Virus record (IMG/VR): IMGVR_UViG_3300045815_000012
Source of the DNA: an uncultured virus (IMG/VR IMGVR_UViG_3300045815_000012)
Lineage: Duplodnaviria > Heunggongvirae > Uroviricota > Caudoviricetes
Reading direction: 5' to 3' (one strand)
Length of the DNA: 34,856 nucleotides
Shown: positions 10,544 through 32,802 of the stretch, in pieces
Layout of the letters: the number at the start of each line of letters is the position of its first letter
How positions within the stretch are numbered: the first letter of the stretch is position 1
The notes under the pieces: model-generated
Databases searched by the model: none
The model's input: only the letters and a program-made list of their open reading frames with translations
Told to the model about the DNA's origin: nothing
Made by a program: the position numbers and the translations under genes

Positions 10544-12007
10544 TTATTTCCTCCTTCCTCTTATCTTAGGCAGATTGGGTTTAACATCGTCTGGATCAAA
10601 AGGCTTATCCATCTTAACCAACGCCTGAGACATCGAATCCACATCGTCATCATGAGCTCCATTAGGGAATGCTTCTAACTCATCTAACACTTCATCAGTC
10701 CATGCTTTCCATAGCGGATGAGGTACGTAGACATTTCCTGACTCCCAAAATGGTGCCACTGCTTGTGCGCGCACTTCTTTACCTCCTTGAGGATTCACTG
10801 CAACCATGCCAGGGATCTTTTTTTGTAGCATTTCAATGACGGCAGTACCATTCGCCTTATCTTCGACTAGTTTTGCCGTTGCTTCCGGCCAACGAGCTGT
10901 CAATGATTGGATAGCTCGCATCGTTTCTACGATGCCCATTCGCTCATGATGCCGATCTAGTAAATAAAAATCAGCATTATCTCTTGCCCATACTTGACCA
11001 GCCACATAGTCAGAAGTGCTTTTGTCCTTAAAAGTACAATCCCAAGACTGTATCTGCTGACTAAAAGAACTAGGCATGACTTTTACATCATCGCCTAGTC
11101 CCAATCGCACTTTCATTTCAATGGAAGGCACATAATATTTCGCCCATGATCGTTTAAAGATATCTCCACCAGCAGGTGTTGGTCGCTGCTGGTACAATGA
11201 TGCCCAACCACGGGACCCAGTAACAGCTTTGGTTTGCTCCGCCCATTCTTCATCTTTACCAATTTCAGGGGCTAAAGCATCGCCGACCTTACGATCAAGC
11301 AAGTCCTTTTCCTCCGCAATAGCTGGTATTTTGATTTCGATCCAAGGTAATGTTTTTTCTTTTAATAAACGACCCGCTAAATCATCTTCATGCCAACGAG
11401 TCATAATAATGATTACAGAACCATTTGCCGATAAACGAGAATAAAACGTATCACGCCATTCAGAATAAATTTTATCTCGGATTGTCTTACTTTCTGCCTC
11501 AGCTCTGTTTTTTACAGGATCATCAATTATCAATAGATCGGAGCCACGGCCAGTTGCACCACCTAAGATAGATGTGCTGTATAACTGACCTAAATGATTA
11601 TCAATACCCCATTCAGAAACACTCGCTATCTCAGAACTTAGTTTCAAATCGAATAGTTCATCACTGTATAAACGAAATTTTTCTCGGTTTTTTCGTCCGA
11701 ACTTTTTGTAAAGTTCCTCTGAATATGAAACAACCATCGCCAATTTATCAGGATTCTTGCATAAAAAATAAGCTGGGAAGGTCTCTGTGATAAAAGTAGA
11801 TTTACCATGTTGTGGTGGTAACTCCACGATGATAAATAATCGTTCTCTATTTGCTATACGATCCAAGTAAGGTGATATATATAACTGGTGTCGTAATGGT
11901 TTAAATGTGCACCCGTGGGTATAGAAAAAGAAGTCAGCAAAATTTCTCCTCGCTAACTCCTTTAGTGATTCTTTTCTAATTATCTCAAGATCAACCATCT
12001 TGTTCAT
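10544..12007 (-). CDS. terL: Terminase large subunit
   Basis: Walker A PPQHGKS, Walker B IIDDP, TRWHEDDL, RNase H-like SWD and HDDDVD motifs. Confidence 0.95.
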   Translation of the reverse strand: MNKMVDLEIIRKESLKELARRNFADFFFYTHGCTFKPLRHQLYISPYLDRIANRERLFIIVELPPQHGKSTFITETFPAYFLCKNPDKLAMVVSYSEELYKKFGRKNREKFRLYSDELFDLKLSSEIASVSEWGIDNHLGQLYSTSILGGATGRGSDLLIIDDPVKNRAEAESKTIRDKIYSEWRDTFYSRLSANGSVIIIMTRWHEDDLAGRLLKEKTLPWIEIKIPAIAEEKDLLDRKVGDALAPEIGKDEEWAEQTKAVTGSRGWASLYQQRPTPAGGDIFKRSWAKYYVPSIEMKVRLGLGDDVKVMPSSFSQQIQSWDCTFKDKSTSDYVAGQVWARDNADFYLLDRHHERMGIVETMRAIQSLTARWPEATAKLVEDKANGTAVIEMLQKKIPGMVAVNPQGGKEVRAQAVAPFWESGNVYVPHPLWKAWTDEVLDELEAFPNGAHDDDVDSMSQALVKMDKPFDPDDVKPNLPKIRGRRK

Positions 12008-12413
12008 AGGCTAATCGCCTCAATTCTTCGGTGCTTAGTTCAGCATATGGATTTTTTGCTTTCACTTCACCGGATAACTCCAATTTCTTAGTGTATATTC
12101 CATCCATTTTGTTCAAAGTATCAATCGCTCGAATCTGGTCTCCTGGATACTCATCGTCATTAGCAATCTCTGAAAGCTTCACCATACGTTCCTTTCGGGT
12201 CATAATAGCTTCGTCTTGAGCTTCTTCTTGGAGTTCTTTATACCTAGCCAGAATCTCATTTTCTCTGAACAAAGCACTCGCCTTGTTGTCTACTGTAGCG
12301 TCTTTCCACCTATTGGCGGAAGCGAACGCCTCGCGATATGCTTTCCGTTGTGTCATGCCTGAAATTAGGCATTGAACGAACTTTTCATGTCTCGCGTTTT
12401 CTAATACAGACAT
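11991..12413 (-). CDS. terS: Terminase small subunit
   Basis: N-terminal HTH (RHEKFVQ..GMTQRKAYREA) and IRAIDTLNKMDG. ATG at 12413 after AGGAG. Confidence 0.9.
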   Translation of the reverse strand: MSVLENARHEKFVQCLISGMTQRKAYREAFASANRWKDATVDNKASALFRENEILARYKELQEEAQDEAIMTRKERMVKLSEIANDDEYPGDQIRAIDTLNKMDGIYTKKLELSGEVKAKNPYAELSTEELRRLAYEQDG

Positions 12414-12430
12414 GCTCTCAACTCCTTTGA

Positions 12431-12460
12431 AAAATAAAAAGACCACCCAATTGAGTGGTC
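12431..12460 (-). terminator. Intrinsic terminator-like hairpin just upstream of terS
   Basis: Minus strand GACCACTC-AATT-GGGTGGTC followed by TTTTTATTTTT. Confidence 0.6.
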
Positions 12461-12742
12461 CTGGTTATGTACTGGGCGGCACGTGAACTTTAAAGGAAGA
12501 GGAGCTATTCACTTCCTTCTTTATTTTTTTAATTGTGCCGCCTAAGATTGTAGAAACCGAGAGAGGAAGCTGTTCACCTCCTTCTGTTTTTTTATAGGTT
12601 ATGTGAGTAGCCTATAAAATATTTTGATGCTCTCTATAAAAACAGCTAGTTCAGATGGTTGTTCATTTACTCCACTTTTTAGCAGTTGTCCTGTTTATGA
12701 TGTTCGTCTGACTAGCTGTAAATATACTAATTTGATAATAAT

Positions 12743-12799
12743 AGTATATAGCAGAAAAACGTGATTAAACCGCCAAATATCCCGCAAAAAACCGCCAAA
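12743..12799 (-). promoter_or_regulatory. Late promoter with probable ArpU-binding direct repeats
   Basis: AAACCGCCAAA at 12767-12777 and 12789-12799 (22-bp period) just after the arpU stop. -10 TATACT at 12748-12743; no canonical -35. Confidence 0.65.
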
Positions 12800-12807
12800 A
12801 TAATTGT

Positions 12808-13224
12808 TCAACGATATGCGATCAATCTGCCTTTTTTATAAGCTTCAGCAAATTCAATTAGAGCTTCTGACATTAGTCTTTCAACGCTGCGCTCAGAGTA
12901 GCCAATTTCACGGCCGATTTTATAATTAGAATAACTATCAGGTGCACAGTAGCGGTAATAGAGAACTTGACGACTTGTTATTCCCAAAGACATCAAAGCT
13001 GCTAAAATAGCATCTCTTTCAGCTTCAGCTTCCATAAATTGGATCATTCCGTCTTCCGCCTTGTTCCCCCATCTATCGCCTTTTGGCATGTCTGACATGA
13101 CTGGTGATTTAATATCTATCATTGACTTTCCCGCTATACGTACCCACTTACGATAATTTTTCAATATTTTTCTTGCATTACATTTAGTTTGATAAAAATC
13201 GACTTCTCTCAATAGCGCTATCAT
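12808..13224 (-). CDS. ArpU-family late transcriptional activator
   Basis: IKSPVMSDMPK and C-terminal HTH ...EALIEFAEAY; position upstream of terS. Confidence 0.9.
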   Translation of the reverse strand: MIALLREVDFYQTKCNARKILKNYRKWVRIAGKSMIDIKSPVMSDMPKGDRWGNKAEDGMIQFMEAEAERDAILAALMSLGITSRQVLYYRYCAPDSYSNYKIGREIGYSERSVERLMSEALIEFAEAYKKGRLIAYR

Positions 13225-13251
13225 GCCATCCGCTCCTTGTGCTATAATGTT

Positions 13252-13298
13252 ATTGACTAGATAACGTTTAGCACTGAGTGAAAGCTTGGTGTTTTTTT
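13252..13298 (+). ncRNA. Candidate small RNA 1 (antisense to early transcription)
   Basis: Extended -10 TGCTATAAT at 13240-13248; terminator GCACTGAG/CTTGGTGT plus T-run. Confidence 0.4.
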
Positions 13299-13312
13299 AT
13301 GATATAATTGTT

Positions 13313-13390
13313 GTGAGCTAGGCTTTTCCTTCAATGGGCGCAAGCATATTTCAACTAGCTCACTGGCAACCGACCACTGGTTGCTTTTTT
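13313..13390 (+). ncRNA. Candidate small RNA 2
   Basis: Extended -10 TGATATAAT at 13300-13308; 9-bp stem GTGAGCTAG/CTAGCTCAC; terminator GCAACC/GGTTGC plus T6. Confidence 0.5.
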
Positions 13391-13418
13391 CTATGCAGTT
13401 GACGACGTTAGCGGAACG

Positions 13419-13613
13419 CTAACACTCTTCTTCAAACAACTTATTCATATCTATTTCACTAAACTTCTCTTTGATCCTGACCAATATCTCAAAACTTGGC
13501 TTCCTGAAATCATTCTCCATTTGTCGGTAGTATCCATACGAAAGATTTAATGCTTCGGCCATTTGACGCTGAGTTAATCCTGCTTGCTGACGAAAACTTT
13601 TTAAATATTCCAT
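13419..13613 (-). CDS. XRE-family HTH protein
   Basis: LKSFRQQAGLTQRQMAEAL...ENDFRKPS. Confidence 0.85.
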   Translation of the reverse strand: MEYLKSFRQQAGLTQRQMAEALNLSYGYYRQMENDFRKPSFEILVRIKEKFSEIDMNKLFEEEC

Positions 13614-13676
13614 GTCTACACCTCCATGTGGTGCTTAACTCCAATACGGGTCATTTTATAGAGCTTTTTCTGCTCT

Positions 13677-14108
13677 CTAAACTATGACGGTTTCAATATT
13701 TCCAATCGTGTAGCATGTTGGATTGTATTTATATTTTTCAAACCAATTGATAATCAAACTCTCTAGTTCATTTTTATGTTCTTCCAAAACATCATCCAAA
13801 TAGTCTTCAGCGACTTCTCCGCATTGATCATACACACCTGCGGCAATCCCCTCTAGAATATAACCAGCATCAATATCAAGACTTGGGCAAAAACACTGAC
13901 CAACGGCAAAACTGACAATCTTCACATCTTCCTTGAACCAATCACCGAGTATGTCTTCGATTTCTGTATCAGTGTTTCCTTGGTTCCACTGAGATATGAC
14001 TTTTTTTCCTGCTTCAATAGCCGCTTCTTTTGTTTCAAAATATTCAGTAGACTTCCAAATATCACAGTCTGCAGACGGGGCGCAAACCCATTCTTTATCA
14101 TGACTCAT
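13677..14108 (-). CDS. Hypothetical phage protein
   Basis: 143 aa acidic protein, AGGAGG RBS, FETKEAAIEAG motif. Confidence 0.75.
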   Translation of the reverse strand: MSHDKEWVCAPSADCDIWKSTEYFETKEAAIEAGKKVISQWNQGNTDTEIEDILGDWFKEDVKIVSFAVGQCFCPSLDIDAGYILEGIAAGVYDQCGEVAEDYLDDVLEEHKNELESLIINWFEKYKYNPTCYTIGNIETVIV

Positions 14109-14154
14109 AAAAATTTCCTCCTTTATCTATGCAATCGCTTCGGTTACCGGATCT

Positions 14155-14340
14155 TTAGTGATACAGCATATTTTGGCTGACTATGTTAATTTCAATTATC
14201 CTGAACAAGTTTCCTTCACTAGATAAATGATCTATGTAAAACTCACTTGCTTCTTTTCCCGTAGTAAAAGTTTCAGGAAATAGTTTCCATGGCTTGCCTA
14301 CTCCTGCGCATGTCATGATTCCGTAGCAGTCTACATTCAT
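14155..14340 (-). CDS. Hypothetical phage protein
   Basis: ATG at 14340 after GAGGTGG, overlapping the upstream stop (ATGA). Confidence 0.65.
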   Translation of the reverse strand: MNVDCYGIMTCAGVGKPWKLFPETFTTGKEASEFYIDHLSSEGNLFRIIEINIVSQNMLYH

Positions 14341-14732
14341 TCCGCCACCTCTTTCATTCCCCATTCCGCGAAGGCTGCTAGGACTTGGGTCTGCTGATCT
14401 GGTGTCAATGCTATATATGCTAGAGAAACGGAATCGAGTGATTCTCCAAGTACAAGCAAGTAAACAGCGTCCATAGGAGAAACTCCTTGCTCTTCAACAG
14501 ACCACTTCAACCACTCCAACACGACCTGCTGGTTTTCGTTGAGTTCATACGGCAATATTTTTCTAAACATTTCAGTATTTTCTCTGATCCAATCTCTCAA
14601 ATATGGATTGTCAATGTAGTAATGTCCGTTGTTAGTAAGCGTATCTGTCAATACAGACTCATACGATTTTCTTGTTAAACGATGCTTCACTATCCAATTT
14701 CTGACAAACTCAATCGTGATATTCTCTTCCAT
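14337..14732 (-). CDS. Hypothetical phage protein
   Basis: Coupled ORF; LNENQQVVLEWLK-type C-terminal region common in enterococcal phage early genes. Confidence 0.7.
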   Translation of the reverse strand: MEENITIEFVRNWIVKHRLTRKSYESVLTDTLTNNGHYYIDNPYLRDWIRENTEMFRKILPYELNENQQVVLEWLKWSVEEQGVSPMDAVYLLVLGESLDSVSLAYIALTPDQQTQVLAAFAEWGMKEVAE

Positions 14733-14734
14733 TC

Positions 14735-15226
14735 TCACACCCACACTTTCTCGACTGTACCATTAAAGAATATTGTCAGCGCTTCTGCTTTAGATTCATC
14801 GGTGAATCTATAAGCCCTTTTCTCCCCTCCCAAGAGCGGTTCCATTTCTTCGTTGAATCTGGTAAAATACATCCCGCTTTGATGTTTTAGTACCCACTTC
14901 GGTTCTTCCTCAACCTCGTCTGGAATATGAAGTTCAGTAAAATGTGTCTTATACTTTGGAAAATCGTCATCTAGTGGTGTGCCGCAATATGGTGGTTCTT
15001 CGACTGGGAAATCCCACCAGAGAACAGGACCAATGTCTTCGTGCCATTTTCCGGCCAAATGAGCAATCACTTTCGTCGGTTCGTCTAGTTGATTAACAAT
15101 TCCGATAATGTCATCGGAGGCATCATTGTATCCTTCCTTATAATCCGATCTGTCCAGTGACGTCCACGGTTTTGAAAAATCATATTTTTCTTTATTAATT
15201 TCTTTGATTAAATCTTGTTTTTCCAT
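14735..15226 (-). CDS. Mosaic hypothetical phage protein (possibly DUF1642-like)
   Basis: 163 aa, GAGGG RBS, central WHEDIGPVLWW..PVEEPPYCGTPLD module. Confidence 0.7.
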   Translation of the reverse strand: MEKQDLIKEINKEKYDFSKPWTSLDRSDYKEGYNDASDDIIGIVNQLDEPTKVIAHLAGKWHEDIGPVLWWDFPVEEPPYCGTPLDDDFPKYKTHFTELHIPDEVEEEPKWVLKHQSGMYFTRFNEEMEPLLGGEKRAYRFTDESKAEALTIFFNGTVEKVWV

Positions 15227-15258
15227 TTCATCCCTCTTTTCTTACTTGATAGGCTGAG

Positions 15259-16014
15259 TTAATTAACCTTTAATTCATTACGAACCTGATTGAAAATATC
15301 CTTAATCAGACTGAATGGGATATTTGAACGAGCGTTATATGCTCCGCCCTTCCGGTCCAACCTCTTGACTCCTAGCTCATTTGGTATATTGGCTTTTCTC
15401 AAGCCTAAATCGATATTACTTTTAAACTTAGTCGCTTTCTTTGCTGGGTAGCCGTAATTGTTGTAGTAAGTCAAATTGTCGAATGGAATACTAAAACCCA
15501 GAACTTTTTCGATGTATTCCCACATCCTGCTGCTGGTTGGATTCTCAATAATATAAATCTGAGGATCGTACCGCTTAATAATCTGTATCGTGTTGAAGGT
15601 GCATAGCTCGCCGTTTATTCTATTCAACAAAGATTTCTCCGGCTTATATTGATACCGATCATAGTCTCTATAATCCCTGATAGTAAAACGTGACAACGGA
15701 GTTTGAGACTCAAACAACCCGTCTCCTTTTTCCTGTTTCCATGAAGCATTACCATCTTTCATTGCGCTAGCTACACTCCAGCTCTCACAAGGAGGACTCG
15801 CAATGATCAAATCTGGGTCTGGTAACTGATCTAATGTTTCAAACAATCCATTTTGTCCAAACAGATGGGAGTAATCAGCTAGATTTAAACTAATGAAATG
15901 GTCATGCTTACCTTCTATATCTAATCCGACACTGTACAATTCTATATATGGAAACTCTTTTGCTGCTTGGGCATAGCAACCATTTCCGCTATCAAACAAC
16001 GCCCATACTATCAA
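15259..16014 (-). CDS. Short DNA cytosine-C5 methyltransferase-like protein
   Basis: Motif I-like LFDSGNG, catalytic motif IV ASPPCES and motif VI IIENP. Confidence 0.75.
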   Translation of the reverse strand: MIVWALFDSGNGCYAQAAKEFPYIELYSVGLDIEGKHDHFISLNLADYSHLFGQNGLFETLDQLPDPDLIIASPPCESWSVASAMKDGNASWKQEKGDGLFESQTPLSRFTIRDYRDYDRYQYKPEKSLLNRINGELCTFNTIQIIKRYDPQIYIIENPTSSRMWEYIEKVLGFSIPFDNLTYYNNYGYPAKKATKFKSNIDLGLRKANIPNELGVKRLDRKGGAYNARSNIPFSLIKDIFNQVRNELKVN

Positions 16015-16043
16015 TTGCTATCCCTCCTTTAAAATGAAGATTT

Positions 16044-16280
16044 ATGATGATATACTCATTTGTAAATACTATGACTGAAAGGAGTGTCTCAATAATGAGC
16101 ACAAATAATGAAACCACTCAGCCACAACAATCTCATCTGTACAAGCAAGAACATATAAAGGGAACTGGTACAGGAGATTACGAATGTATCCGTTGTGGAC
16201 ACGTTACCTCAAATAAAGACCTAGACACCACTAAATGTGAGCCAAAAGATGATAAGGAAAACCACATGTCTGACTATTGA
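16044..16280 (+). CDS. Small Cys-rich (Zn-ribbon-like) protein, inverted relative to neighbours
   Basis: CIRC...C..H residues. AGGAG RBS suggests a start at 16095. Followed by terminator GACTATTGA/TCAATAGTC plus T-run (16272-16300). Confidence 0.6.
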   Translation: MMIYSFVNTMTERSVSIMSTNNETTQPQQSHLYKQEHIKGTGTGDYECIRCGHVTSNKDLDTTKCEPKDDKENHMSDY

Positions 16281-16324
16281 TTGCTCAATAGTCTTTTTTT
16301 ACTTAATTGGTGTGGTTACCGGAA

Positions 16325-16480
16325 CTATTCGTCCATTTCATTAATAATTTTTACAACTTCTGACTTAGCGGATTTACTTAATCTGTAAAAAATAATCTGA
16401 TTTCTGTTTCTAAATTTCATGTTTGCATATTCTCTTCCAAGCGCTATGCCTAAAATGAATAGAATAATGGTCCATGTCAT
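16325..16480 (-). CDS. Small membrane protein (51 aa, not in ORF track)
   Basis: MTWTIILFILGIALGREYANMK...EMDE*; GAGGA RBS. Confidence 0.6.
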   Translation of the reverse strand: MTWTIILFILGIALGREYANMKFRNRNQIIFYRLSKSAKSEVVKIINEMDE

Positions 16481-16491
16481 TCGCCGTCCTC

Positions 16492-16728
16492 CTAATCACT
16501 CAAACTCTCACTAATCATTTTTTCTAATTCCATCATAATTTCATGTGGCAAATTCACTTCTACATCGATACCTTTATCAAAGCAATTCATTCGTAATAGA
16601 TAGGTGACATCTTCGTCGCTAACTTCCTTAACTATTCCAAGTTTGTATAAATTGCAGTTGTTCACTACGACGTTTTTTTGTAAGTCGTGCAAACTAGTTT
16701 TGTTTTCGTATCTCACTTCATAGCTCAT
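16492..16728 (-). CDS. Hypothetical phage protein
   Basis: 78 aa, AGGAGG RBS. Confidence 0.7.
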   Translation of the reverse strand: MSYEVRYENKTSLHDLQKNVVVNNCNLYKLGIVKEVSDEDVTYLLRMNCFDKGIDVEVNLPHEIMMELEKMISESLSD

Positions 16729-16764
16729 GATTTAAATCCTCCTTGATTGTTGTCGTTAGCAGAA

Positions 16765-17007
16765 CTAGCCTGCATCATAAACTAAATCAACATTTTTAAA
16801 CCTATTCCACATAATCGGAACTTTTGACGTGTCAATTTCTGTATTGAAATTAAATTTTGGTCTAAAATCCCCGTCTCCATCACAGTGGAATCCAATCATT
16901 CGTGAGCCTCCGATACTTCCGTAATACTCCATATGTTCTAACATTGAAATAAAATAAGTTAGCCATCTTTCTTCCATTTCGACATCGATAGTTATCTTTT
17001 TTCTCAT
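16765..17007 (-). CDS. Hypothetical phage protein
   Basis: 80 aa, GSIGGSR..DGDGDFRPKF motif, GAGGTGG RBS. Confidence 0.75.
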   Translation of the reverse strand: MRKKITIDVEMEERWLTYFISMLEHMEYYGSIGGSRMIGFHCDGDGDFRPKFNFNTEIDTSKVPIMWNRFKNVDLVYDAG

Positions 17008-17041
17008 TCATTCCACCTCGTTTCCTCTTCTATGTCTTCCG

Positions 17042-17509
17042 TTACATGAACTGCACACAGCCATCTTCACTTGCTAATTCAAATGCTTTTTTAAAGTTCA
17101 AATACGTTTCCATGTCATAGTCATCCAACTGCTCTCTAGCGATTTTTTCTAAATCTTTAAAATCTTTAGCCAATTTTTTTGATACAACGGGACCGATAAA
17201 TCCTTCGCAGTCGGAGAACATTATTAACTCGAATAATTGTGAGTTCGACGCCATTTTTTCCAATTTTTCTCTGAAACGGTTGTAATGCGAGTAAGCTCCT
17301 GCACTAAAACTAAATGAATCGTCAGAAGAATACACACCAGTGACTAGACCTTGTGTCCGTCCTTTAAAGTGCTCTTCTGTATAGTCTAGTGTCGGTTGAT
17401 TGATTTCTACTAGTTTATCCCAATCTACTAAACAACCATCCTCATCTCTTTTTGGATTATCAACTTTCATCATTTTTTTATAAGCTTCTACATCTAAACC
17501 CATTATCAT
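17042..17509 (-). CDS. Hypothetical phage protein (MGLD-start family)
   Basis: 155 aa, MGLD N-terminus, FSDCEG motif. Confidence 0.75.
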   Translation of the reverse strand: MIMGLDVEAYKKMMKVDNPKRDEDGCLVDWDKLVEINQPTLDYTEEHFKGRTQGLVTGVYSSDDSFSFSAGAYSHYNRFREKLEKMASNSQLFELIMFSDCEGFIGPVVSKKLAKDFKDLEKIAREQLDDYDMETYLNFKKAFELASEDGCVQFM

Positions 17510-17581
17510 TCCTTCTTTCTTTTTCTCTGCTAATGCCCCATGTAAGTGAGCTTTGTTCCCTGAATTTCTCCAATAGCGTAT

Positions 17582-17827
17582 CTATTTATTTGAAATAAAA
17601 AAACTTTCTGCCTGTTCATCGTCACCGTACTTTTCCGCCATCATAACTTCAATTTCATTCTTGTAAACAGACATCACTCTATTGATTCCCCAAAGAGGAT
17701 GACTCTCGCGCCATTTTTTATACTCTTGCGTTTTCTCAAGTTCTTGAATAAGTTGATGTTCTATATCATCCAATTCGTCCTTTTGGGTTTGCCATTTTTC
17801 AGCTAGTACTCTTTTTTCTTGTTTCAT
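17582..17827 (-). CDS. Hypothetical phage protein
   Basis: 81 aa, AAGGAG RBS. Confidence 0.7.
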   Translation of the reverse strand: MKQEKRVLAEKWQTQKDELDDIEHQLIQELEKTQEYKKWRESHPLWGINRVMSVYKNEIEVMMAEKYGDDEQAESFFISNK

Positions 17828-17867
17828 ATCAAATCTCCTTCCCTATGCAAATGCTCCAGTTAGCGGA

Positions 17868-18065
17868 CTATCCAATAAATTTCTCTTTCTTATATCCAAC
17901 TTCGATCAGAAACTCTTCTCGCTGATTCAACGCTGTTCGATAACTCGTTTTCGATTCAATACTCTTAGCTATTTGTTGTGCTTTATCAATGCTGGTATAG
18001 CAGAACAGTTTTCTATCTTCGTCTGCTACGATTGCTGCAATCTTATCGTGATATATGCGATACAT
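17868..18065 (-). CDS. Hypothetical phage protein
   Basis: 65 aa, GAGGTG RBS. Confidence 0.7.
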   Translation of the reverse strand: MYRIYHDKIAAIVADEDRKLFCYTSIDKAQQIAKSIESKTSYRTALNQREEFLIEVGYKKEKFIG

Positions 18066-18100
18066 AGAATCACCTCGAATTTAGTTTGATGCCATAACTC

Positions 18101-18283
18101 TCATTTTTTCATTAGCTTTTTTGTATTGCTATTCCACTCAAATAGTTCACAGGTTCTTAAATCTACGACAACAGCTACCCCGTCTGCAATTGCAGAATAA
18201 TGCCGATTGTCCCATTGACGATATTTTTTAACTTCGCAATATCCATAACGCTGAATCAGCTCTTTAATCCTCTTTTTTTGCAC
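18101..18283 (-). CDS. Hypothetical phage protein
   Basis: 60 aa, GTG start after GAGG, overlaps the DUF1064-like gene. Confidence 0.65.
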   Translation of the reverse strand: MQKKRIKELIQRYGYCEVKKYRQWDNRHYSAIADGVAVVVDLRTCELFEWNSNTKKLMKK

Positions 18284-18695
18284 TAACTATAAACGCCTCT
18301 TTTCTCTTGTTTGCTGGCATGTTGAACGGATAGTGAATAAAGCCATATCGTGTCTTCTTAGCCAGTTCAATTACTATGCCTAACTCTTTAGCTATCATCT
18401 TTGCTTTAAGCTTGAAATCCTTCGTTTCCACGCCTTTAACGTCAACCAGTCGAATAAGTTCACCTTTGTCATAAAAAGCATAGTCAGCGACGTATTGAGT
18501 CTTTCTAATGGCCCATTGATTAAGTTTTAACGTCGGCAAAATATCTAGACGATCTTGAAGTTTAAGCTCATATCCGTGATCCTTGGCATAAGCGACAGCG
18601 ATTGGATAATAATCAGCCTCAGCAATCGAATCAAACCAGCGTCCATTACGATATACTTTCTTATTGCCATATTTCGATCTTGAGCGATATTTCAT
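18264..18695 (-). CDS. DUF1064-like PD-(D/E)XK endonuclease (putative resolvase)
   Basis: SKYGNKK, FDSIAEA, YVADY, VDVKGVET motifs. Confidence 0.85.
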   Translation of the reverse strand: MKYRSRSKYGNKKVYRNGRWFDSIAEADYYPIAVAYAKDHGYELKLQDRLDILPTLKLNQWAIRKTQYVADYAFYDKGELIRLVDVKGVETKDFKLKAKMIAKELGIVIELAKKTRYGFIHYPFNMPANKRKEAFIVSAKKED

Positions 18696-18955
18696 GCAGG
18701 CACCTCAGCATTCAATCGACTAGTGAGAAATGTGAGATAGTAATCGGCATTTAATTTGCTGTAATCTACTTGTTTAGTGACGTATCGAAGAATATAGCAA
18801 GTGATCATTAGGCAGAAGCGGTGTTCAATTTCTTCGTGAGAACAATCAATTCGAACCATCTTTCTTAAACGTTCATAGTACGAACGTAATAATTCTTTCT
18901 CATCCTCGTTACTCGCTGTTTCGCCTAATTTGCTAATGATCTCAAGAAATCGCAT
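18692..18955 (-). CDS. Hypothetical protein downstream of the initiator
   Basis: 87 aa, coupled to both neighbours. Confidence 0.65.
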   Translation of the reverse strand: MRFLEIISKLGETASNEDEKELLRSYYERLRKMVRIDCSHEEIEHRFCLMITCYILRYVTKQVDYSKLNADYYLTFLTSRLNAEVPA

Positions 18956-19820
18956 GTTCCATCCCCCGCTTCTTAATTTCTTCGGTCAGTATTCCCAATT
19001 CTTGCTCTGTGACACTATACTTTTCTGCAAAATAATCTAGCGAAGGGTGTCCACCCATCTTTTCAGCCCACCAATAGTCAAATAGTTTTTTAGGCGTCCA
19101 TTTGCTTTTAGAATTACGAGCTGAATTATTTTTGTTATAGTGTCCATCCAAAAAGTGTTGGACCTTTTCTAACGAATCTAGACCTTGTGATTCCCATGAT
19201 TTAAGAATTTTCTCAAGGTATTTATAGCTACGAGCATTGTTCTTTAGCATCTCATCAATAGCAGCGATCACGATCGCATCATCACCAAAGTCATTGACCC
19301 AATGGCCTAAAGACTGAACGATGAATGGCGCTTCTGCTGGGTTCACTTGATTGAGCCAATAACGTACAGCGCTCTCTTCTGAATTTTTAGTAATACTAGA
19401 TTCAGAAGCATTATTACTTTGTTTAGTTTTGTTTTGTTTAGTCTTGTTTATATAAGCTGAAGTATCTACTGAAGAAACTACTGAACTATTTACTGAAGTA
19501 TCTACTGAACAATCTACTGTAGTCTTTACTGTAAAATTTCCAGTTATATCAGATAAGATATAAATTCCAGCTTTTGTTCTACCACGCTTTTTATATTGAA
19601 GGAGCCCGTTTTGGATTAACTGATTCCTATTATTAATCAATGTTTTCTCAGACGTTTTAGTCATTGATTGTAGCCTTGTATTTGAAATAGATAACTCCTT
19701 CTGCCAACCGCTCAGGTTTGCTACTCGCATAAGCTTGTACCAAAGCAACTGTGCCCCAGGCCCGATGTCATTAAACTCATTCAAATTTTCGAAAGCGTTA
19801 ATCTGTCTGATGTAGTCCAA
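18942..19820 (-). CDS. Replication initiator (wHTH + DnaD/DnaB_2 domain)
   Basis: MDYIRQINAF..AQLLWYKL wHTH, YKYLEKILKSW DnaD motif, internal iterons. Confidence 0.9.
   Translation of the reverse strand: MDYIRQINAFENLNEFNDIGPGAQLLWYKLMRVANLSGWQKELSISNTRLQSMTKTSEKTLINNRNQLIQNGLLQYKKRGRTKAGIYILSDITGNFTVKTTVDCSVDTSVNSSVVSSVDTSAYINKTKQNKTKQSNNASESSITKNSEESAVRYWLNQVNPAEAPFIVQSLGHWVNDFGDDAIVIAAIDEMLKNNARSYKYLEKILKSWESQGLDSLEKVQHFLDGHYNKNNSARNSKSKWTPKKLFDYWWAEKMGGHPSLDYFAEKYSVTEQELGILTEEIKKRGMEHAIS
19456..19539. repeat. Seven tandem 12-bp iterons (ACTGAAGTATCT-like), probable replication origin
   Basis: gctgaagtatct actgaagaaact actgaactattt actgaagtatct actgaacaatct actgtagtcttt actgtaaaattt, next to an AT-rich TTTGT/TTTAG repeat tract (~19418-19450). 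Confidence 0.8.
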
Positions 19821-19835
19821 AATCGTTACTCCTTT

Positions 19836-20636
19836 CTATAGATCATTCATATTGATGAAACCAGTGATTCGTTTGTGACCTCTGCAGTAATCGCATTGAC
19901 CACATTGAATAGGTTCTTCTTGTCCCATCTTCACTCGATGGATATGATCAATGTTTTCTTCTAATCTCGATAGTTCTGATTGCATTTTTGATTCATCTAA
20001 AGTAATTAGACCAACATCACTAGGTGTCTGCTTACTGACTGCTGCAATGAATGGAACGAATTGTTTATTGTATTGTTGCTCTAGCAACTCTCGATAGACA
20101 GCCATTTGAAGCGCATATCCGTAACGTTCAATGAAGTTAGCTCTAGGGCCCCAATAAAGGTCATACTTCTTTTCATGTATATCTTTTGTTGTCTTGATAT
20201 CAACAAAGTAACCATCATTTAGATTTAAACAATCAATCTTGCCTTTCCATTCGATTCCAAATAATTCACCAGTCACAATGACTTCCTTATCTCCTTGATA
20301 AATCTGATTGAATGCGGGTTCCTGTTTTAGTCGATCAATCATTTGTTCTGCGATTTGAAAGTCTTTTAAAAGTCCGAATGGGTTGCGACTGGAGAACATT
20401 TTTTCTTTGTTTTCTTCTTTAAATGCTTCGTGTGCTGCTGATGATTCAAAATAAGAATGAACATAGTTTCCAACTAACAAAGGTTTCTTGTCATGATCAG
20501 GCTCCCATTCCCCTTTTAATTCTGCTAATGCCGCAACTTCACAATTTAAAAAGTTTTTATATTGGCTGACTGACATATAATGCCAATCAGCCTCATTTGA
20601 ATAGTAGTTTTCATCAGAAAGGATATCCGTCTCCAT
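19836..20636 (-). CDS. RecE-like PD-(D/E)XK exonuclease (DUF3799-like)
   Basis: ENYYS..MSVSQYK, KGKIDCL, FVDIKTT, YALQMAVY and C-terminal CGQCDYC. Start uncertain (20636-20681). Confidence 0.85.
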   Translation of the reverse strand: METDILSDENYYSNEADWHYMSVSQYKNFLNCEVAALAELKGEWEPDHDKKPLLVGNYVHSYFESSAAHEAFKEENKEKMFSSRNPFGLLKDFQIAEQMIDRLKQEPAFNQIYQGDKEVIVTGELFGIEWKGKIDCLNLNDGYFVDIKTTKDIHEKKYDLYWGPRANFIERYGYALQMAVYRELLEQQYNKQFVPFIAAVSKQTPSDVGLITLDESKMQSELSRLEENIDHIHRVKMGQEEPIQCGQCDYCRGHKRITGFINMNDL

Positions 20637-21411
20637 CTTCATCAATTGGAGCCACTTCCTCTCTATCGAAATTAATTGCATTTGGATCTTTATAGTTAAG
20701 GTCTAATGATTCTTGCTCAGGTTCATTTTCTAGCTCGACTACATCAGCTTCTCTAGGACCATTCACAGCATTGCTAAAGAATTTATTTTCTAGTTCCTGT
20801 GTTTTTTCAGGTTCAGGCGTTACTTGTTTAGCATTTGTTTGTTGCAGTTTTACGTTTTGGTCATCTTCTGTATACATAGCTCCCAAAGCTTCTGGAAAGG
20901 CTTCTCTTAATGCGTTAACGATTGCTGTTTTTCTAATCATTGTGTTTGGCATGTTCTTCCAAGTAGCTTGTCCTTTAGAAAATTCTTCCAATGCTACTTG
21001 AGAGACAATAGGCATCGTTCTATCTTTTCTATAAACCTTAGCCCAGCCGCCGATTAACACATCTTTAGGCAATTTAATCGCTCCAGCCAATTCCTTAATG
21101 TCCTCACCACGTTGGACAACGATTCCTGCTTCAAATCCATCATATTGAGGATGACTTTCTGCTCGTTTCATAAAAGCTTCTTTTGAAACAATAATTTGTG
21201 CAGGTTGTGTTCCGAACTTGACTAAATATGCTTCATTCAAGAATGGATTTAGCTTTTGATACTTAGCCAATTGTAGAAACATTACTAACTCTTGGTCCGT
21301 CACATTCCCATTTCCAGAAACAAGATATTGTTTAACCATGTTTCCGGTAAGTTTTACTTCTTCACCGTTTACTTCATATTCAATCGGTTTTTCTAGAATT
21401 TCATTACTCAC
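20614..21411 (-). CDS. bet: Single-strand annealing recombinase (Bet/RecT family)
   Basis: KLNPFLNEAYLVKF and WKNMPNTMIRKTAIVNALREAFP; acidic C-terminal tail DGDGYPF. Confidence 0.9.
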   Translation of the reverse strand: MSNEILEKPIEYEVNGEEVKLTGNMVKQYLVSGNGNVTDQELVMFLQLAKYQKLNPFLNEAYLVKFGTQPAQIIVSKEAFMKRAESHPQYDGFEAGIVVQRGEDIKELAGAIKLPKDVLIGGWAKVYRKDRTMPIVSQVALEEFSKGQATWKNMPNTMIRKTAIVNALREAFPEALGAMYTEDDQNVKLQQTNAKQVTPEPEKTQELENKFFSNAVNGPREADVVELENEPEQESLDLNYKDPNAINFDREEVAPIDEDGDGYPF

Positions 21412-21733
21412 GATCCAACACTCCTTCTAGTTTCTTCTGTAGGTATTCTCTGCCTTCAATAGCAAAGCTGTAATCTTGATACACAATGCCGATATCATCG
21501 ATCAATTCCACGTAATTATCGATCACTACGTATTTAGCAAAAGTGACTTTTACTATTCTGTCTTGTGTGATTTGTCTTTTCGAAAAAACTACTTTCATAA
21601 CTAAATCACTGTCATAAACCTGAGTGCCATAATCATCGAACATATAATCATATTCAGTATTGATATTGCTTTGACTAACGTTTGTAAAAATATGGCTCTT
21701 TGTATCTGCCATTGCACGATCGTAATTAAACAT
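21404..21733 (-). CDS. Hypothetical phage protein
   Basis: ATG at 21733 after AGGGGG. Confidence 0.7.
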   Translation of the reverse strand: MFNYDRAMADTKSHIFTNVSQSNINTEYDYMFDDYGTQVYDSDLVMKVVFSKRQITQDRIVKVTFAKYVVIDNYVELIDDIGIVYQDYSFAIEGREYLQKKLEGVLDRE

Positions 21734-21806
21734 TGTTATTTCCCCCTTCATTTGTTAAAATGAGGTCAAATAGATTAACCTTTTGCGACTTACTTTTGCT
21801 GTCAGG

Positions 21807-22007
21807 CTAGTAAGTCTCTTTTTTTGTGCGTTGTTCGTATTCTTTCTCGTCGTAGATCATAGTAGTTGGGATTAAAACGCTTGCTGCTGCTATGCAAATG
21901 ATCATTACTAAAACTTTTAACGATTGGATCGAGCTGAGTTTCAGCATCAGTACTAGTCCAGCAACAAAGGCTATTCCAAATCCACGAATAATTTTTATTT
22001 TCTTCAT
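21807..22007 (-). CDS. Small two-TM membrane protein
   Basis: Two hydrophobic segments; AGGAGG RBS. Confidence 0.7.
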   Translation of the reverse strand: MKKIKIIRGFGIAFVAGLVLMLKLSSIQSLKVLVMIICIAAASVLIPTTMIYDEKEYEQRTKKETY

Positions 22008-22018
22008 GCTTGCGCCTC

Positions 22019-22480: not shown

Positions 22481-22737
22481 GCTGTTCCCTCCTTTTTCAT
22501 TTCCAAAATATTTTTGTTTAGTTTTGATAACTCTTTGCGCTGTTTTTCTTCTGAAATCACATTTCTAAAACTTTTTCCTGCATTTTCGAATAAAAACCTT
22601 TCGGCTTCACGTATACTAACCAGTTTTTGAGAACTAAATTGAACTGTCTTTATCAAACCTAAGTCGACCAAAATGTAAATGTTATCTTTTGACGTTCTGT
22701 ACTCACTAGCTAATTCCGGTAATGTGTACGCAAGCAT
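22477..22737 (-). CDS. Excisionase-like winged-HTH protein
   Basis: LAYTLPELA..TSKDNIYILVDLGLIK resembles HTH_17/Xis; early operon position. Confidence 0.65.
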   Translation of the reverse strand: MLAYTLPELASEYRTSKDNIYILVDLGLIKTVQFSSQKLVSIREAERFLFENAGKSFRNVISEEKQRKELSKLNKNILEMKKEGTA

Positions 22738-23265: not shown

Positions 23266-23330
23266 ATTAATCACTCCTTTTGTATTCAATTGTCATTTTT
23301 CATAGCAGTCATACTGCTATAAACTGTTTA

Positions 23331-23492: not shown

Positions 23493-23542
23493 TAGATCAC
23501 CTCCATAATTTCTAGTTATTTTTGATTGTACAAACAAACTGG

Positions 23543-23770: not shown

Positions 23771-23782
23771 CCCTCCTTCTAA

Positions 23783-31650: not shown

Positions 31651-32802
31651 ATGAATGGACATGTAAGAAAAATCGGCAACAAATGGCACTATACCATCGA
31701 AATGGCAAAAGTTGGCGGTAAACGTCAGCGTATACAAAAAGGTGGATGGAATACAAAAACTGAGGCACAAGAACATCTAAGAGAAGCGCTGAACGAATAT
31801 AAACGTGGCGGTAAAGTGGATTTAACGGATATTAGTGTTTCTGATTATTTTGATTACTGGTTTGAAAATTATGTTGAGAAGAAACTTAAGTATAATACGC
31901 AAAAAAACTATAAAAATGTAATTGATAAATACGTGAAGCCAGAAATTGGGAAATACCTACTTCAATCAATAGGCCCTGCGAAATTGCAGGAGCTTGTAAA
32001 TAAACTACCTGAAGGATTTAATAAACAGCTCTCAAAACATTCTGTAGAGATTATCTTCACTGTCCTAAAAGGTGCATTTCGAAGAGCAGTCTTCCCTTAT
32101 CAACTAATTAATAGCAATCCAATGGACTATGTCGAAATGCCGGCATTCCCTTCTAAACCAAAACAGTCAAGAGATGATATGAAAATTATAACAATGGATC
32201 AGTACCTTAAAATTTTAGATAACACCCCTATTTCGGATTCTTTTCACATTCCTCTTGTCATTGCTTTCCACACAGGGTTGCGTCGCGGCGAAGTTTGTGG
32301 GATGACCTGGGACAATGTGTCATTTGAAGATCAGACTTTAACTATCACTAAAATTATGTTACAAGACAAGAATGGGATACAAATAGGAACACCCAAAACG
32401 CAGGCTAGTTATCGAACCATCAGTATTGATGACATGCTGCTTGAAGAGTTAAAAAGCCATAAAAAAAGACAATTAGAAAACAGAATGAGATATGGAAAGT
32501 TTTATTATGAAAGTTCATTTGTATGTACTAAAGAAAACGGACAGCCTGTCACACCAAATTCAATAAAATGGTCAGCAAGTAAAATCAAGAAGAATTTAGG
32601 TATTAACTTTAACTTCCATTCTTTGAGACACACGCATGCAACAATGCTCTTAGAGGATGGAGTAAAACCGAAAATTGTTCAAGAAAGACTCGGCCATTCG
32701 AGGATTTCTACTACTATGGATAAATATGTACATGTTACTAAGAAAATGAGAACTGAAGCCGTTGATATTTTCGCCGAACGTCTTCGCCGTTCAATGAACT
32801 AA
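31651..32802 (+). CDS. int: Tyrosine integrase
   Basis: N-terminal arm-binding domain; TGLRRGE, PKT, HSLRHTHAT, LGHS and catalytic Y (MDKYVH). Confidence 0.97.
   Translation: MNGHVRKIGNKWHYTIEMAKVGGKRQRIQKGGWNTKTEAQEHLREALNEYKRGGKVDLTDISVSDYFDYWFENYVEKKLKYNTQKNYKNVIDKYVKPEIGKYLLQSIGPAKLQELVNKLPEGFNKQLSKHSVEIIFTVLKGAFRRAVFPYQLINSNPMDYVEMPAFPSKPKQSRDDMKIITMDQYLKILDNTPISDSFHIPLVIAFHTGLRRGEVCGMTWDNVSFEDQTLTITKIMLQDKNGIQIGTPKTQASYRTISIDDMLLEELKSHKKRQLENRMRYGKFYYESSFVCTKENGQPVTPNSIKWSASKIKKNLGINFNFHSLRHTHATMLLEDGVKPKIVQERLGHSRISTTMDKYVHVTKKMRTEAVDIFAERLRRSMN

Follow-up and report, generated by a model that had tools for sequence, protein, structure and literature searches.

A one-directional motif at gene ends of the early region

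Seven early genes of an Enterococcus prophage carry a one-directional signal at their ends, which raises the question of what a sequence repeated in this position might do. The prophage lies in a stretch of 34,856 nucleotides of uncultured viral DNA (IMG/VR record IMGVR_UViG_3300045815_000012, hereafter the window), where a variable early region is flanked by a resolvase-like gene and a late regulator (Table 1). The replication genes and the late regulator enclose all of the sites, and the motif is missing from half of the region's gene ends. The first-pass annotation had listed ten sites of 11-6-11 bp geometry here, and had proposed an integron-like or dif-module-like system that moves cassettes of one to three genes by means of a host Xer, the phage Int or microhomology.

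Each confirmed site is a coding-strand sequence of approximately 30 bases in contact with a stop codon. A shared nine-base core is followed by a six-base central block and then by a looser right part, which merges into the next ribosome-binding site or into a hairpin. The exact core is present four times in the window (13407-13415, 14143-14151, 16315-16323 and 17859-17867), always on the minus strand and 0-3 bases past a stop codon, where approximately 0.3 copies are expected by hand arithmetic from base composition. With at most one mismatch there are 18 matches, compared with 6.83 ± 2.74 in 100 shuffles, none of which reached 18; the motif is thus enriched over shuffled sequence. A repeat search found the family independently, as five copies of 34 nt. 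Scoring of the window and of relatives with a weight matrix of 18 bases gave five strong window sites (18.8-25.0, starting at 17867, 16763, 16323, 14151 and 13415), while the next sense match scored 10.8 and the sole antisense match 13.0. Two more degenerate sites (2 and 5) are positioned, as judged by eye, exactly as the conserved class order described below predicts.

The five strong and two weaker sites (17052 and 15259) of the original ten are therefore retained, that at 17583 is doubtful, and those at 13654 and 18099 are unsupported, neither reaching a weight-matrix score of 8. For the supported sites the single orientation and the contact with stop codons were borne out. A seven-base right-hand block does recur in three sites at identical spacing, as had been noticed, although by itself this block occurs no more often than predicted (34 matches, 34.08 expected).

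Table 1. Features of the early region and its surroundings. Positions are those of the window; scores are from the weight matrix.
Feature	Position	Strand	Core	Score	Remarks
ArpU-like late transcription regulator	12808..13224	-			Downstream anchor of array
Variable early region	13419..18283	-			Approximately 14 small genes, seven slots
Boundary site 7	13391..13418	-	13415-13407	20.5	34-nt repeat copy 13385-13418; after stop of small HTH gene 13419-13613; final site before late-regulator gene; with the gene end forms 17-base palindrome at 13407-13423; matches of relatives begin at 13415/13416 or stop at 13399
Boundary site 6	14127..14154	-	14151-14143	21.7	34-nt repeat copy 14121-14154; after stop of gene 14155-14364
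Third boundary family	14735..14752	-			End of gene 14735-15226, start of gene 14337-14744
Boundary site 5	15240..15269	-	15266-15258, degenerate	9.9	Inner stop triplet is stop of DNA methyltransferase gene 15259-16014; central block and right part same as sites in L060, L063, L143 and L049; other phage contigs from same samples match only 15224-15267
Boundary site 4	16299..16326	-	16323-16315	25.0	34-nt repeat copy 16293-16326; after stop of gene 16325-16480, then hairpin shared with convergent small ORF 16044-16280; L053, L063 and L069 matches end at 16292-16300
Second boundary family	16477..16492	-			Between genes 16492-16728 and 16325-16480
Boundary site 3	16739..16766	-	16763-16755, one mismatch	19.5	After stop of gene 16765-17007; L069 match begins at 16743
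Boundary site 2	17019..17052	-	17049-17041, degenerate	<8	Class 2; 34-nt repeat copy 17019-17052; 65% copy of repeat family D2; contains stop codon of gene 17042-17509; central block that of relatives' class 2 (by eye); L053 match ends at 17042
Boundary site 1	17843..17870	-	17867-17859	18.8	Class 1 in conserved order; 34-nt repeat copy 17837-17870; after stop of gene 17868-18065; homology with L046, L074 and L076 stops at 17855-17859
Holliday-junction-resolvase-like gene (DUF1064)	18264..18695	-			Upstream anchor of array
Exonuclease (19836-20681) and RecT-like single-strand annealing protein (20614-21411)	19836..21411	-			Phage-encoded pair for homologous recombination
Prophage integrase, tyrosine recombinase with arm-binding domain	31651..32802	+			Approximately 14 kb from array

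Distribution of the motif in related phages

Matches form one-strand clusters of approximately 3-6 kb in the window and in five further phage records, of which four have a completeness rating of 94% or more. At a weight-matrix score of 14 there are 75 sense unique contexts and one antisense. Across 11 loci there are 35 sense matches within 8 kb upstream of the late regulator and one within 8 kb downstream; together with the weight-matrix scan this confirms the earlier remark that the motif is missing from the structural genes. An ORF end lies within -12 to +15 bases of 65 of the 76 unique sites, compared with 5500 of 82000 random positions. The stop triplet of the core is the actual stop codon in 15 of the 76, a further 22 have an in-frame stop three codons upstream of that triplet, and the distance from site to next start is preferentially 13-16 or 22-26 bases.

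The reach of the motif is narrow. In Enterococcus phages of a sister group (72 loci, 1.06 Mb) there were four sense matches and one antisense, which is background, and five Enterococcus genomes gave only 0-3 pattern matches each. In 134 Enterococcaceae genomes, matches were about as frequent as those to a reversed control pattern, except for prophage-like hits in near relatives. The family was recovered in enterococcal phage relatives, and in these host genomes it was not found outside prophages. Neither motif nor architecture was found in the deposited phage genomes or the literature searched.

No protein travels with the motif, since those of the window vary or are absent across the five other motif-bearing phages. 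Repressor identity is 29-48%, none of the five has the window's RecT, four lack the late regulator (two of these being rated complete), and no window protein is common to three or more of them, bar an integrase of 25-27% identity. An annealing protein of some kind was present in all phages examined, with a RecT-like protein and exonuclease in the window, G006, G007 and G008 and a Sak4-like protein in G002.

A fixed place at stop codons, with one orientation relative to transcription, could mean that the core is mainly a gene-expression signal on RNA or DNA, read by a host or phage factor in termination-reinitiation, transcript processing or operator-like binding, with recombination a by-product. 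The frequent use of the core's triplet as the stop codon itself, the fusion of the right part with the next ribosome-binding site at preferred start distances, and a core that is kept across slots and better conserved than its flanks all fit this explanation, and the cited passages on Cluster K start-associated sequences (PMC3203893) and stoperators (PMC9283540) provide precedents. However, Rfam gave no match at E up to 1, neither covariation nor a hairpin was found in the site, and complementarity to 16S rRNA of the host genus was no better than that of shuffled sites (91-245 of 300 shuffles reached the observed value). No promoter-like match falls on a site. The immunity operators (23770-23923) have another sequence, which is palindromic, and phages with the same motif carry different repressors. 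As host chromosomes contain the motif only in prophages, a general host factor is unlikely, and half of the region's gene ends do without it. We therefore regard a primary role in expression as quite improbable.

Sites coincide with mosaic breakpoints and follow a fixed order

The same site joins unrelated genes in related Enterococcus phages, and homology breakpoints fall inside it. Of the site pairs with a flank in common, 36 have it upstream only, 39 downstream only and 17 on both sides, although these contexts are not independent events because the loci are related. In two loci from one metagenome (L063 and L073), blocks of 99-100% identity have all four of their borders inside sites. Site windows occupy 2.15% of the sequence, take in 44 of the 251 gene ends and contain 20 of the 80 ends of matches of at least 97% identity; 15 match ends fall at the remaining 207 gene ends and 45 elsewhere. 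This coincidence is somewhat inflated, since alignments extend through any conserved motif. As three quarters of the high-identity breakpoints lie outside them, the sites are preferred and not exclusive.

The central blocks fall into seven classes, which across 28 arrays gave 207 concordant, 5 discordant and 8 same-class pairs; none of 2000 shuffles reached the observed order, the largest value being 150. The block is identical in 17 of 28 upstream-only pairs and 24 of 29 downstream-only pairs, compared with 323 of 5674 unrelated pairs, and when counted by eye its class is the same in 26 of 28 and 28 of 29, respectively. Fourteen diverged orthologous pairs, which are few and non-independent, have 1-5% mismatches in the site and 9-14% in the flanks. 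A position-specific central block and a fixed order of seven classes point to slot-by-slot replacement and not to integron-like free insertion.

We conclude with considerable confidence that the sites are the borders of exchangeable slots. This agrees with the proposal that they delimit exchangeable units of one to three genes, and in relatives the breakpoints of gain, loss and replacement do fall inside them. Chance, or plain common descent of neighbouring 3' ends without any role, might be entertained given that the loci are related and that AT-rich intergenic DNA is full of stop triplets, but the shuffles of the window, the excess of sense contexts, the joining of unrelated genes by one site and the class order each refute it, and it is scarcely credible.

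Proposed homology-directed exchange of ordered slots

Our preferred explanation, to which we give slightly less than an even chance as a whole, is that conserved linkers split the variable early region of an Enterococcus temperate-phage family into seven ordered slots. Each linker begins at or just past the stop codon of a slot's last gene, with a core common to all slots and six central bases particular to one slot border. Two related phages meeting in one cell would recombine within a site of the same class, so that the contents of a slot, one to three genes, could be replaced without disturbing gene order, stop codons or translation signals. The likeliest step would be homology-directed exchange across 20-35 shared bases, by the annealing-protein and exonuclease pairs of the phages or by host RecA, with selection retaining only products whose junctions lie in this harmless punctuation. 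Of the three routes originally offered, microhomology thus becomes the leading one, with the same reserve as the account of which it is part. Slot exchange is read here from genome mosaics, while we infer both the enzyme of exchange and the reason for conservation of the core. Plain use of homology leaves a common core with distinct central blocks in seven linkers unexplained, and this combination points to a factor that reads the core.

Such a factor might be a predicted phage-encoded Xer-like tyrosine recombinase, here termed Y-early (approximately 336 aa, with Phage_integrase and SAM-like domains). Among curated family models it matches XerA, XerC and XerD best, each below cut-off; the closest relative with a solved structure is XerD (E 2.6e-19), to which the catalytic residues R, K, H, R, H and Y align. 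The core would be its binding arm and the six central bases the overlap that must match between partners, so that same-class sites of co-resident phages would recombine in a counterpart of recombinase-mediated cassette exchange; with its own overlap at each border, sites in one genome would not delete one another, and phages lacking the gene, such as that of the window, would be passive partners served in trans. The statement that no dedicated recombinase is adjacent holds for the window and not for many relatives, where the gene lies approximately 760 bases downstream of the resolvase gene and upstream of the array. All 14 viral Y-early loci with at least 9.9 kb of downstream sequence have 2-7 sense sites, every one downstream of the gene and none in up to 10 kb upstream, and in each of the 14 genomic loci with a homologue of 54% identity or more, 1-5 sense sites follow downstream. 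Sister-group loci lack both gene and motif, and a clade whose recombinase is 58-61% identical has a changed core. The layout of conserved arm, six position-specific bases and looser arm, with class order kept, is that of a tyrosine-recombinase site, the central block travels with both flanks, and only with a six-base spacer is there a weak two-fold symmetry (3.68 of 9 matches, compared with 2.28 ± 0.15 in shuffles). Homologues at 32-34% identity occur in four loci, and the one that is annotated sits among the type I restriction-modification genes hsdM, hsdS and hsdR; recombinases of this kind are described as inverting hsdS segments at short repeats (PMC7096588, in the part cited).

Against this, the window has seven well-conserved sites and no Y-early gene, the gene is also absent from G002, and in G004 it is split into two ORFs although the five sites there score 21-26. 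In G008 approximately 2.3 kb and several genes separate it from the first site. There is no palindrome in the inner arms, most of the weak symmetry comes from the ribosome-binding site, gene and motif may merely share ancestry in one phage population, and two other boundary families (see below) do a similar job with no resemblance to the main site. Given the separate, position-specific six bases and the Xer-like recombinase in many relatives, a site-specific mechanism of this other kind is a live rival and the main one, though less probable than homology-directed exchange.

Comparison with known systems

An integron or dif-module system, with host XerC/XerD (or XerS) or the prophage integrase as its enzyme and with free insertion and excision, would account for the 11-6-11-like layout with its inner stop triplet and for direct repeats flanking units of one to three genes. 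Like integron attC cassettes, this is a one-orientation array of small genes with a recombination-prone site at each stop codon. However, no folded attC-like hairpin and no integron integrase was detected, the Xer-like protein scoring 67 bits against an integron-integrase cut-off of 265, and the fixed site order means that cassettes are replaced in place and not captured at one end. Host Xer/dif is not supported, given the asymmetric inner arms, the seven sites per phage and the background-level matches in host genomes outside prophages and in sister-group phages. The phage Int is an arm-binding integrase at the prophage end, and integrases vary between motif-bearing phages. We consider such a system very unlikely. 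From the proposed geometry, the six central bases survive as a separate position-specific unit, but clear two-fold symmetry does not.

More broadly, tyrosine-recombinase sites (Xer/dif, lox-type heterospecific spacers and hsdS invertons, as far as described in PMC7096588 and PMC7672463) share the order of arm, six bases and arm, central bases as the unit of compatibility and, in many relatives, an Xer-like gene nearby. They differ in that here the inner arms are not palindromic, the predicted recombinase is absent from the window, and the sites form direct-repeat arrays instead of one site or inverted pairs.

The linker idea of modular phage evolution reportedly originates with Susskind and Botstein and with Clark et al. 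Boundary or 'linker' sequences are cited as a proposed mechanism for lambdoid phages (PMC3029335), where short conserved border sequences are common to unrelated modules and homologous recombination is thought to swap modules while leaving genes intact. In contrast, the present sites form one defined family: they have a core in common, a six-base centre that depends on position and seven classes in order, and they hug stop codons within a single region. In the passages cited, conserved linkers could not be found at most mosaic borders (PMC3029335), so clear cases are rare.

PeSL cassettes of T4-type phages, as portrayed in the sections cited (PMC2839356, PMC4122927), are likewise intergenic motifs that recur through a hyperplastic region whose small genes are non-essential; they span the upstream stop codon to the next ribosome-binding site and mediate modular shuffling. 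They comprise a sigma-70 promoter and a stem-loop terminator, neither of which is present at these sites, and those sections describe no position specificity for them; PeSL mini-circles have been demonstrated physically.

Stoperators have one orientation relative to transcription and lie in short intergenic gaps near stop codons. According to the excerpts cited, those of Cluster A mycobacteriophages are short asymmetric sites, many per genome, that match the immunity repressor's operator genome-wide (PMC9283540, PMC3029335), whereas here the operators are another palindrome, the repressor varies at 29-48% and the sites span 3-6 kb. Cluster K start-associated sequences (PMC3203893) and halovirus HF2 intergenic repeats (PMC8707807) are also lineage-specific, one-orientation border motifs, but in the portions cited they are at gene starts or promoter-bearing, whereas the present motif is bound to the upstream stop codon and has no promoter-like match.

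Two further families of boundary sequence

The border role is not tied to one sequence, as two unrelated families also join varied genes. The third family was found in 15 unique contexts, and other contigs from the same samples match the window only at 14725-14763. The second, which consists of a ribosome-binding site with overlapping start and stop and is unrelated to the main motif, has 29 unique contexts among oriented loci. The L069 locus has two extra genes inserted at that point, flanked by three direct copies of this second sequence.

A recurring motif at gene ends of the early region

The window is a temperate siphophage-like prophage whose late regulator has its closest named relatives in prophages of Enterococcus hailinensis (100%), E. 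dongliensis (94%) and E. viikkiensis (92%). Its landmarks are listed in the table, together with the Xer-like genes of relatives that are considered further below.

Landmarks of the window, and Xer-like genes in loci of relatives (L-numbers)
Feature	Location	Strand	Remark
Cro-like gene	23543-23770	-	start of early genes
RecT-like gene	20614-21411	-	
Exonuclease gene	19836-20681	-	
DnaD-like gene	18942-19820	-	
Resolvase-like gene	18264-18695	-	
About 14 small genes	after the resolvase-like gene, down to 13419	-	
ArpU-like late regulator	12808-13224		structural genes next
CI-like repressor	23923-24579	+	
Integrase	31651-32802	+	several defence-like genes also on + strand
Xer-like gene	L163:12861-13871	+	
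Xer-like gene	L162:5306-6316	-	
Xer-like gene	L160:9492-10502	-	
Xer-like gene	L158:6368-7222	-	

Between the resolvase-like gene and the late regulator lies an array of seven sites, each consisting of a nine-base core, six central bases and a looser right-hand part. The core has four exact copies, which all lie on the minus strand in a stretch of 4.5 kb, in each case 0-3 bases past a stop codon. When one mismatch was allowed the core matched 18 times, against 6.83 +/- 2.74 in shuffled sequence, and none of 100 shuffles reached 18. An unprompted repeat search returned a five-member family of 34 bases at the same places, and a weight matrix derived from relatives recovered five window sites with scores of 18.8-25.0. 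Two weaker sites are degenerate in the core (17049-17041 and 15266-15258); judged by eye, their central and right-hand parts recur in relatives, and both stand exactly where the conserved class order described below predicts. The first-pass annotation had listed ten sites, of which these seven stood, while the one at 17583 is doubtful and those at 13654 and 18099 are without support; the seven-base right-hand block common to three sites is not enriched when taken alone. We conclude that the boundary motif is a real, strongly non-random feature, for which chance is a most improbable explanation.

Anatomy of the site

The composition of the site was analysed over 75-76 unique contexts from the window and its relatives. 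Six of the nine core positions are nearly invariant; the core is followed by five to six variable bases closing on a conserved C, and then by a three-base W-A-T. The right end is a looser stretch, which in some sites is the ribosome-binding site of the next gene and in others a block that finishes with a stop triplet. The stop codon of the preceding gene usually lies three bases ahead of the core, and otherwise a stop triplet inside the core serves as the stop. Offsets from motif start to ORF end include -8 (15 sites), +1 (22 sites) and 0 (8 sites). An ORF ends within -12 to +15 of the site in 65 of 76 cases, compared with 6.7% of random positions.

Placed in this way at stop codons and ribosome-binding sites, the motif might be primarily an expression signal, a reading we consider unlikely. 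A promoter scan gave 26 promoter-like matches where 34.3 +/- 6.7 were expected, with no overlap between any of them and a site, and an Rfam search of 12000-24500 at E up to 1 returned nothing. No hairpin was found within the site, although a separate one follows some sites, and the potential to pair with a related host's 16S rRNA, scored as a test for a reinitiation signal, was not above that of shuffles.

The first-pass annotation had proposed an integron-like or dif-module-like cassette system. Sites of the Xer/dif type have two inverted arms of approximately 11 bp with palindromic inner ends and a centre of 6-8 bp, and occur once per replicon, including in the host chromosome; integron attC sites are imperfect palindromes that fold into a hairpin, and their cassettes are captured in variable order. 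The enterococcal site is some 30 bases long without an inverted repeat, and internal pairing or covariation did not exceed expectation (top mutual information 0.37). Mirror symmetry at a spacer of 6 amounted to 3.68 of nine positions, compared with 2.28 +/- 0.15 in shuffles, but this resides in the outer positions, which are largely ribosome-binding site, and the inner positions do not mirror each other as Xer/dif-type arms would. The integron-like version is likewise not supported, as there is no folded attC, the window encodes no integron integrase and the class order is fixed rather than variable.

Distribution of the motif

At a score of 14, the unique contexts comprise 75 in the sense orientation and one in antisense. 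In 11 loci anchored on the late regulator there are 35 sense matches in the 8 kb upstream and one in the 8 kb downstream, and in the window and five further phage records, four of them rated at least 94% complete, the matches are gathered on one strand in a single cluster of 3-6 kb. A sister group of Enterococcus phages (72 loci, 1.06 Mb; late regulator 67% identical) is without the motif, having four sense matches and one antisense match. A longer motif pattern run over viral contigs gave 41 stretches, about half of them chance single matches in GC-richer DNA, and these were left out of the counts.

Apart from prophage-like places, the motif is absent from host chromosomes. Five Enterococcus genomes contain 0-3 pattern matches each and 134 Enterococcaceae genomes have near-background counts, which, set beside seven sites per phage, does not fit a host Xer/dif site. 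Taken together with the anatomy of the site, we regard the host-Xer or integron version of the system as highly improbable.

None of 50,697 deposited phage genome records has the motif. Megablast of the 5.6-kb region against deposited phage genomes gave no match and blastn matched the methylase gene alone, while two queries with site sequences of 43 bases (E up to 10) found only chance matches of 17-25 bases in unrelated phages. Text searches of the literature for the two variants of the core returned nothing but unrelated primer lists, and a search on conserved intergenic or module sequences in Enterococcus prophages, in a library with few subscription journals, gave no description of the motif.

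Gene content changes at the sites and their order does not

Among motif-bearing phages the same site can follow one gene yet precede different genes, and vice versa: of the site pairs with a common flank, 36 share the upstream side only, 39 the downstream side only and 17 both. Matches of relatives to the window end inside sites, at 17855-17859, 17042, 16743, 16292-16300, 13415/13416 and 13399. The clearest case is that of two phages from one metagenome, L063 and L073, where blocks that are 99-100% identical are interrupted by unrelated DNA and the four block borders all fall inside sites.

Where matches of at least 97% identity end, 20 of 80 ends lie in site windows, which make up 2.15% of the sequence, 15 at other gene ends and 45 elsewhere, indicating that the sites are preferred, but not exclusive, as breakpoints. 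The site windows account for 44 of 251 gene ends, giving 0.45 breakpoints per motif-bearing gene end against 0.07 for each of the other 207, in a set of loci that are related to one another. Some of this coincidence is built in, since an alignment tends to extend through whatever conserved motif it reaches.

By their six central bases the sites sort into seven classes, which follow one order along the array. Across 28 arrays, 207 pairs were concordant with this order, five discordant and eight of the same class; with the order re-derived each time, none of 2000 shuffles came close, the largest value being 150. The window has all seven classes, once each, in the conserved order. The central block is also retained when a flank is exchanged, being identical in 17 of 28 upstream-only and 24 of 29 downstream-only pairs, compared with 323 of 5674 unrelated pairs, and the remaining one-flank pairs are mostly one base apart and of the same class. 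As the class order is fixed and the centres are kept in one-flank pairs, we describe the array as seven slots whose contents are replaced in place.

In 14 diverged orthologous pairs, which are few and not independent, mismatches amount to 1-5% in the site and to 9-14% in its flanks, so that the site is the better conserved part. The borders of identity range from position 6 to position 33 on one side and from -8 to 8 on the other; both ranges include the centre, and the spread is compatible with both homology and a recombinase. Contigs from four ant metagenome and metatranscriptome sets, which cannot show rare forms, contained no deletion or circle joint at the sites and no informative RNA ends, and a missing joint or uncovered part in them is no evidence against such forms; the joints listed in these sets are other phage contigs that share only junction stretches of 25-40 bases.

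Other boundary sequences behave alike

The motif is not the only conserved sequence at gene borders in these phages. A second boundary family, in which a ribosome-binding site is combined with an overlapping start and stop, occurs at 16492-16477 (-) in the window. It has 29 unique contexts, a number of which belong to the sister group, where a one-base variant is present. In a relative (L069:303-790), three direct copies of this second family flank two extra genes that are inserted between the counterparts of the window's genes 16492-16728 and 16325-16480. A third family lies at 14752-14735 (-), at the overlap of genes 14735-15226 and 14337-14744, and has 15 unique contexts; part of it encodes a common C-terminal peptide. 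A de novo k-mer search, aimed at an analogue of the motif in the sister group, was too noisy to interpret but also flagged this third family.

Contigs of other phages in the same samples share with the window only stretches of the second and third families and site 5, with different DNA between them (on short sides). These shared junction stretches are only a hint of exchange. Since two unrelated boundary families behave alike, exchange at conserved punctuation is general in this phage population, with no one sequence needed.

A Xer-like recombinase accompanies many arrays

We found no protein common to all motif-bearing phages. In five other such phages the repressor is 29-48% identical to that of the window, the window's RecT was found in none, and the only window protein common to at least three is an integrase, at 25-27% identity. 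Two records rated complete lack the late regulator, and a third has it at 40% identity. Every phage examined encodes some annealing protein.

The first-pass annotation had noted that no dedicated recombinase is adjacent to the array. This is so in the window, but the early region of many motif-bearing relatives encodes, upstream of the array, a Xer-like tyrosine recombinase of approximately 336 aa. Its catalytic residues align with those of XerD and are intact, it scored 67 bits against the integron-integrase model (cut-off 265), and it is distinct from the prophage integrase, both being present in two phage records (G007 and G008). Where the homologue is at least 54% identical, a sense-oriented motif lies downstream in 14 of 14 viral and 14 of 14 genomic loci with enough downstream sequence, and the clade with a recombinase 58-61% identical has a changed core. 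None of four further loci with homologues at 32-34% identity has the motif downstream; the one of these distant homologues that is annotated sits among type I restriction-modification genes, the kind of place where hsdS-inverting recombinases occur (PMC7096588). A second, different Xer-like gene of 273 aa is present in phage record G004 (L158:9730-10551).

Such a recombinase could exchange slots at the sites, a reading that we consider less likely than not. A site-specific enzyme is favoured by the layout, in which one core is shared while the centres differ by position and are kept apart, and by the better conservation of the site than of its flanks. Against this, the window, record G002 and a number of further phages with the motif lack the gene, the copy in G004 is broken into two ORFs, and gene and motif may simply share ancestry. 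It is possible, if on the doubtful side, that a common arm and a position-specific overlap of six bases create seven mutually incompatible classes as targets of the Xer-like recombinase; there would then be no deletion within a genome, slots would be swapped between co-resident phages, and phages without the recombinase would act as passive partners. We favour homology-directed exchange at the sites, because boundary sequences are general, the site lacks two-fold symmetry and arrays without a recombinase exist, and put its probability a little below even.

Relation to known systems

Integrons capture cassettes in variable order, whereas the enterococcal array shows the opposite, replacement in place. 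Like the stoperators of other phages, the sites have one orientation. However, stoperators match the operator of the immunity repressor and co-vary with it, whereas the enterococcal operators are a different palindromic hexamer pair and the motif is constant while the repressor diverges to 29-48% identity. Stoperators are, in addition, spread genome-wide over early and late operons, in contrast to the single 3-6 kb cluster seen here.

A closer likeness is to the linker sequences of mosaic phages, which are also short conserved border sequences with unrelated flanks and coinciding breakpoints. In linker systems exchange proceeds by general or phage-encoded homologous recombination; the phages examined here have genes for annealing proteins. 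The nearest concept is the boundary or linker sequence of modular theory (PMC3029335); according to the same review, such linkers cannot be found at most mosaic borders. The nearest worked example is the PeSL cassette of T4-type phages (PMC2839356), whose sigma-70-type promoter and stem-loop terminator the enterococcal motif lacks.

Phage genomes are mosaic, but module swapping at conserved linkers is an old idea with few clear examples. The enterococcal case offers a sharply defined linker family, with statistics, seven position-specific classes in a fixed order and exchanges between co-occurring phages that are visibly recent, so that a long-standing modular model becomes testable by simple crosses. 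It also raises the question of whether a virus-encoded Xer-like enzyme runs slot exchange; if so, this would be a new viral route for trading accessory genes (methylases and possible anti-defence genes) and a natural instance of heterospecific-site cassette exchange in viruses. In practical terms, the sites predict where enterococcal phages tolerate foreign genes without harm.

Further features of the genome

A palindromic hexamer occurs at least five times in the immunity region (23770-23923), with several of the copies in a 6-5-6 arrangement, and amid them lies a near-consensus promoter (23831-23803, -); the hexamers are presumably CI/Cro operators. At 13407-13423, site 7 and the end of a small HTH gene together form a perfect 6-5-6 palindrome with the same geometry as the repressor operators and a half-site one base different, which is kept in a 93%-identical orthologue; the 64-aa HTH protein, whose gene lies immediately upstream, may use this palindrome as an operator. 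Five tandem 12-base repeats at 19457-19540, within the DnaD-like replisome-organiser gene, look like origin iterons.

From repressor to integrase (24586-31560, +) there is a run of defence-like or moron genes, encoding an HSDR_N-type endonuclease, a Dam-type methyltransferase, an AAA_21/SMC-like ATPase (588 aa) and a fusion of a non-specific endonuclease with a membrane-associated tail; two genes of the run have no Pfam match, only PHROG families of unknown function. Within the array, a 78-aa ORF with no family match (16044-16280, +) is convergent to the early operon, adjoins a C5-methyltransferase-like gene (15259-16014) and has its own terminator-like hairpin at 16272-16293, directly after site 4.

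The ant metatranscriptome contigs cover the whole early region (12500-19000; 98-99% of sampled words), which may reflect transcription or carried-over DNA, between which contigs do not discriminate. A 1340-base contig filed under a Streptomyces assembly (L151) encodes a 62%-identical ArpU-like protein and is most likely Firmicutes phage DNA contaminating that assembly.
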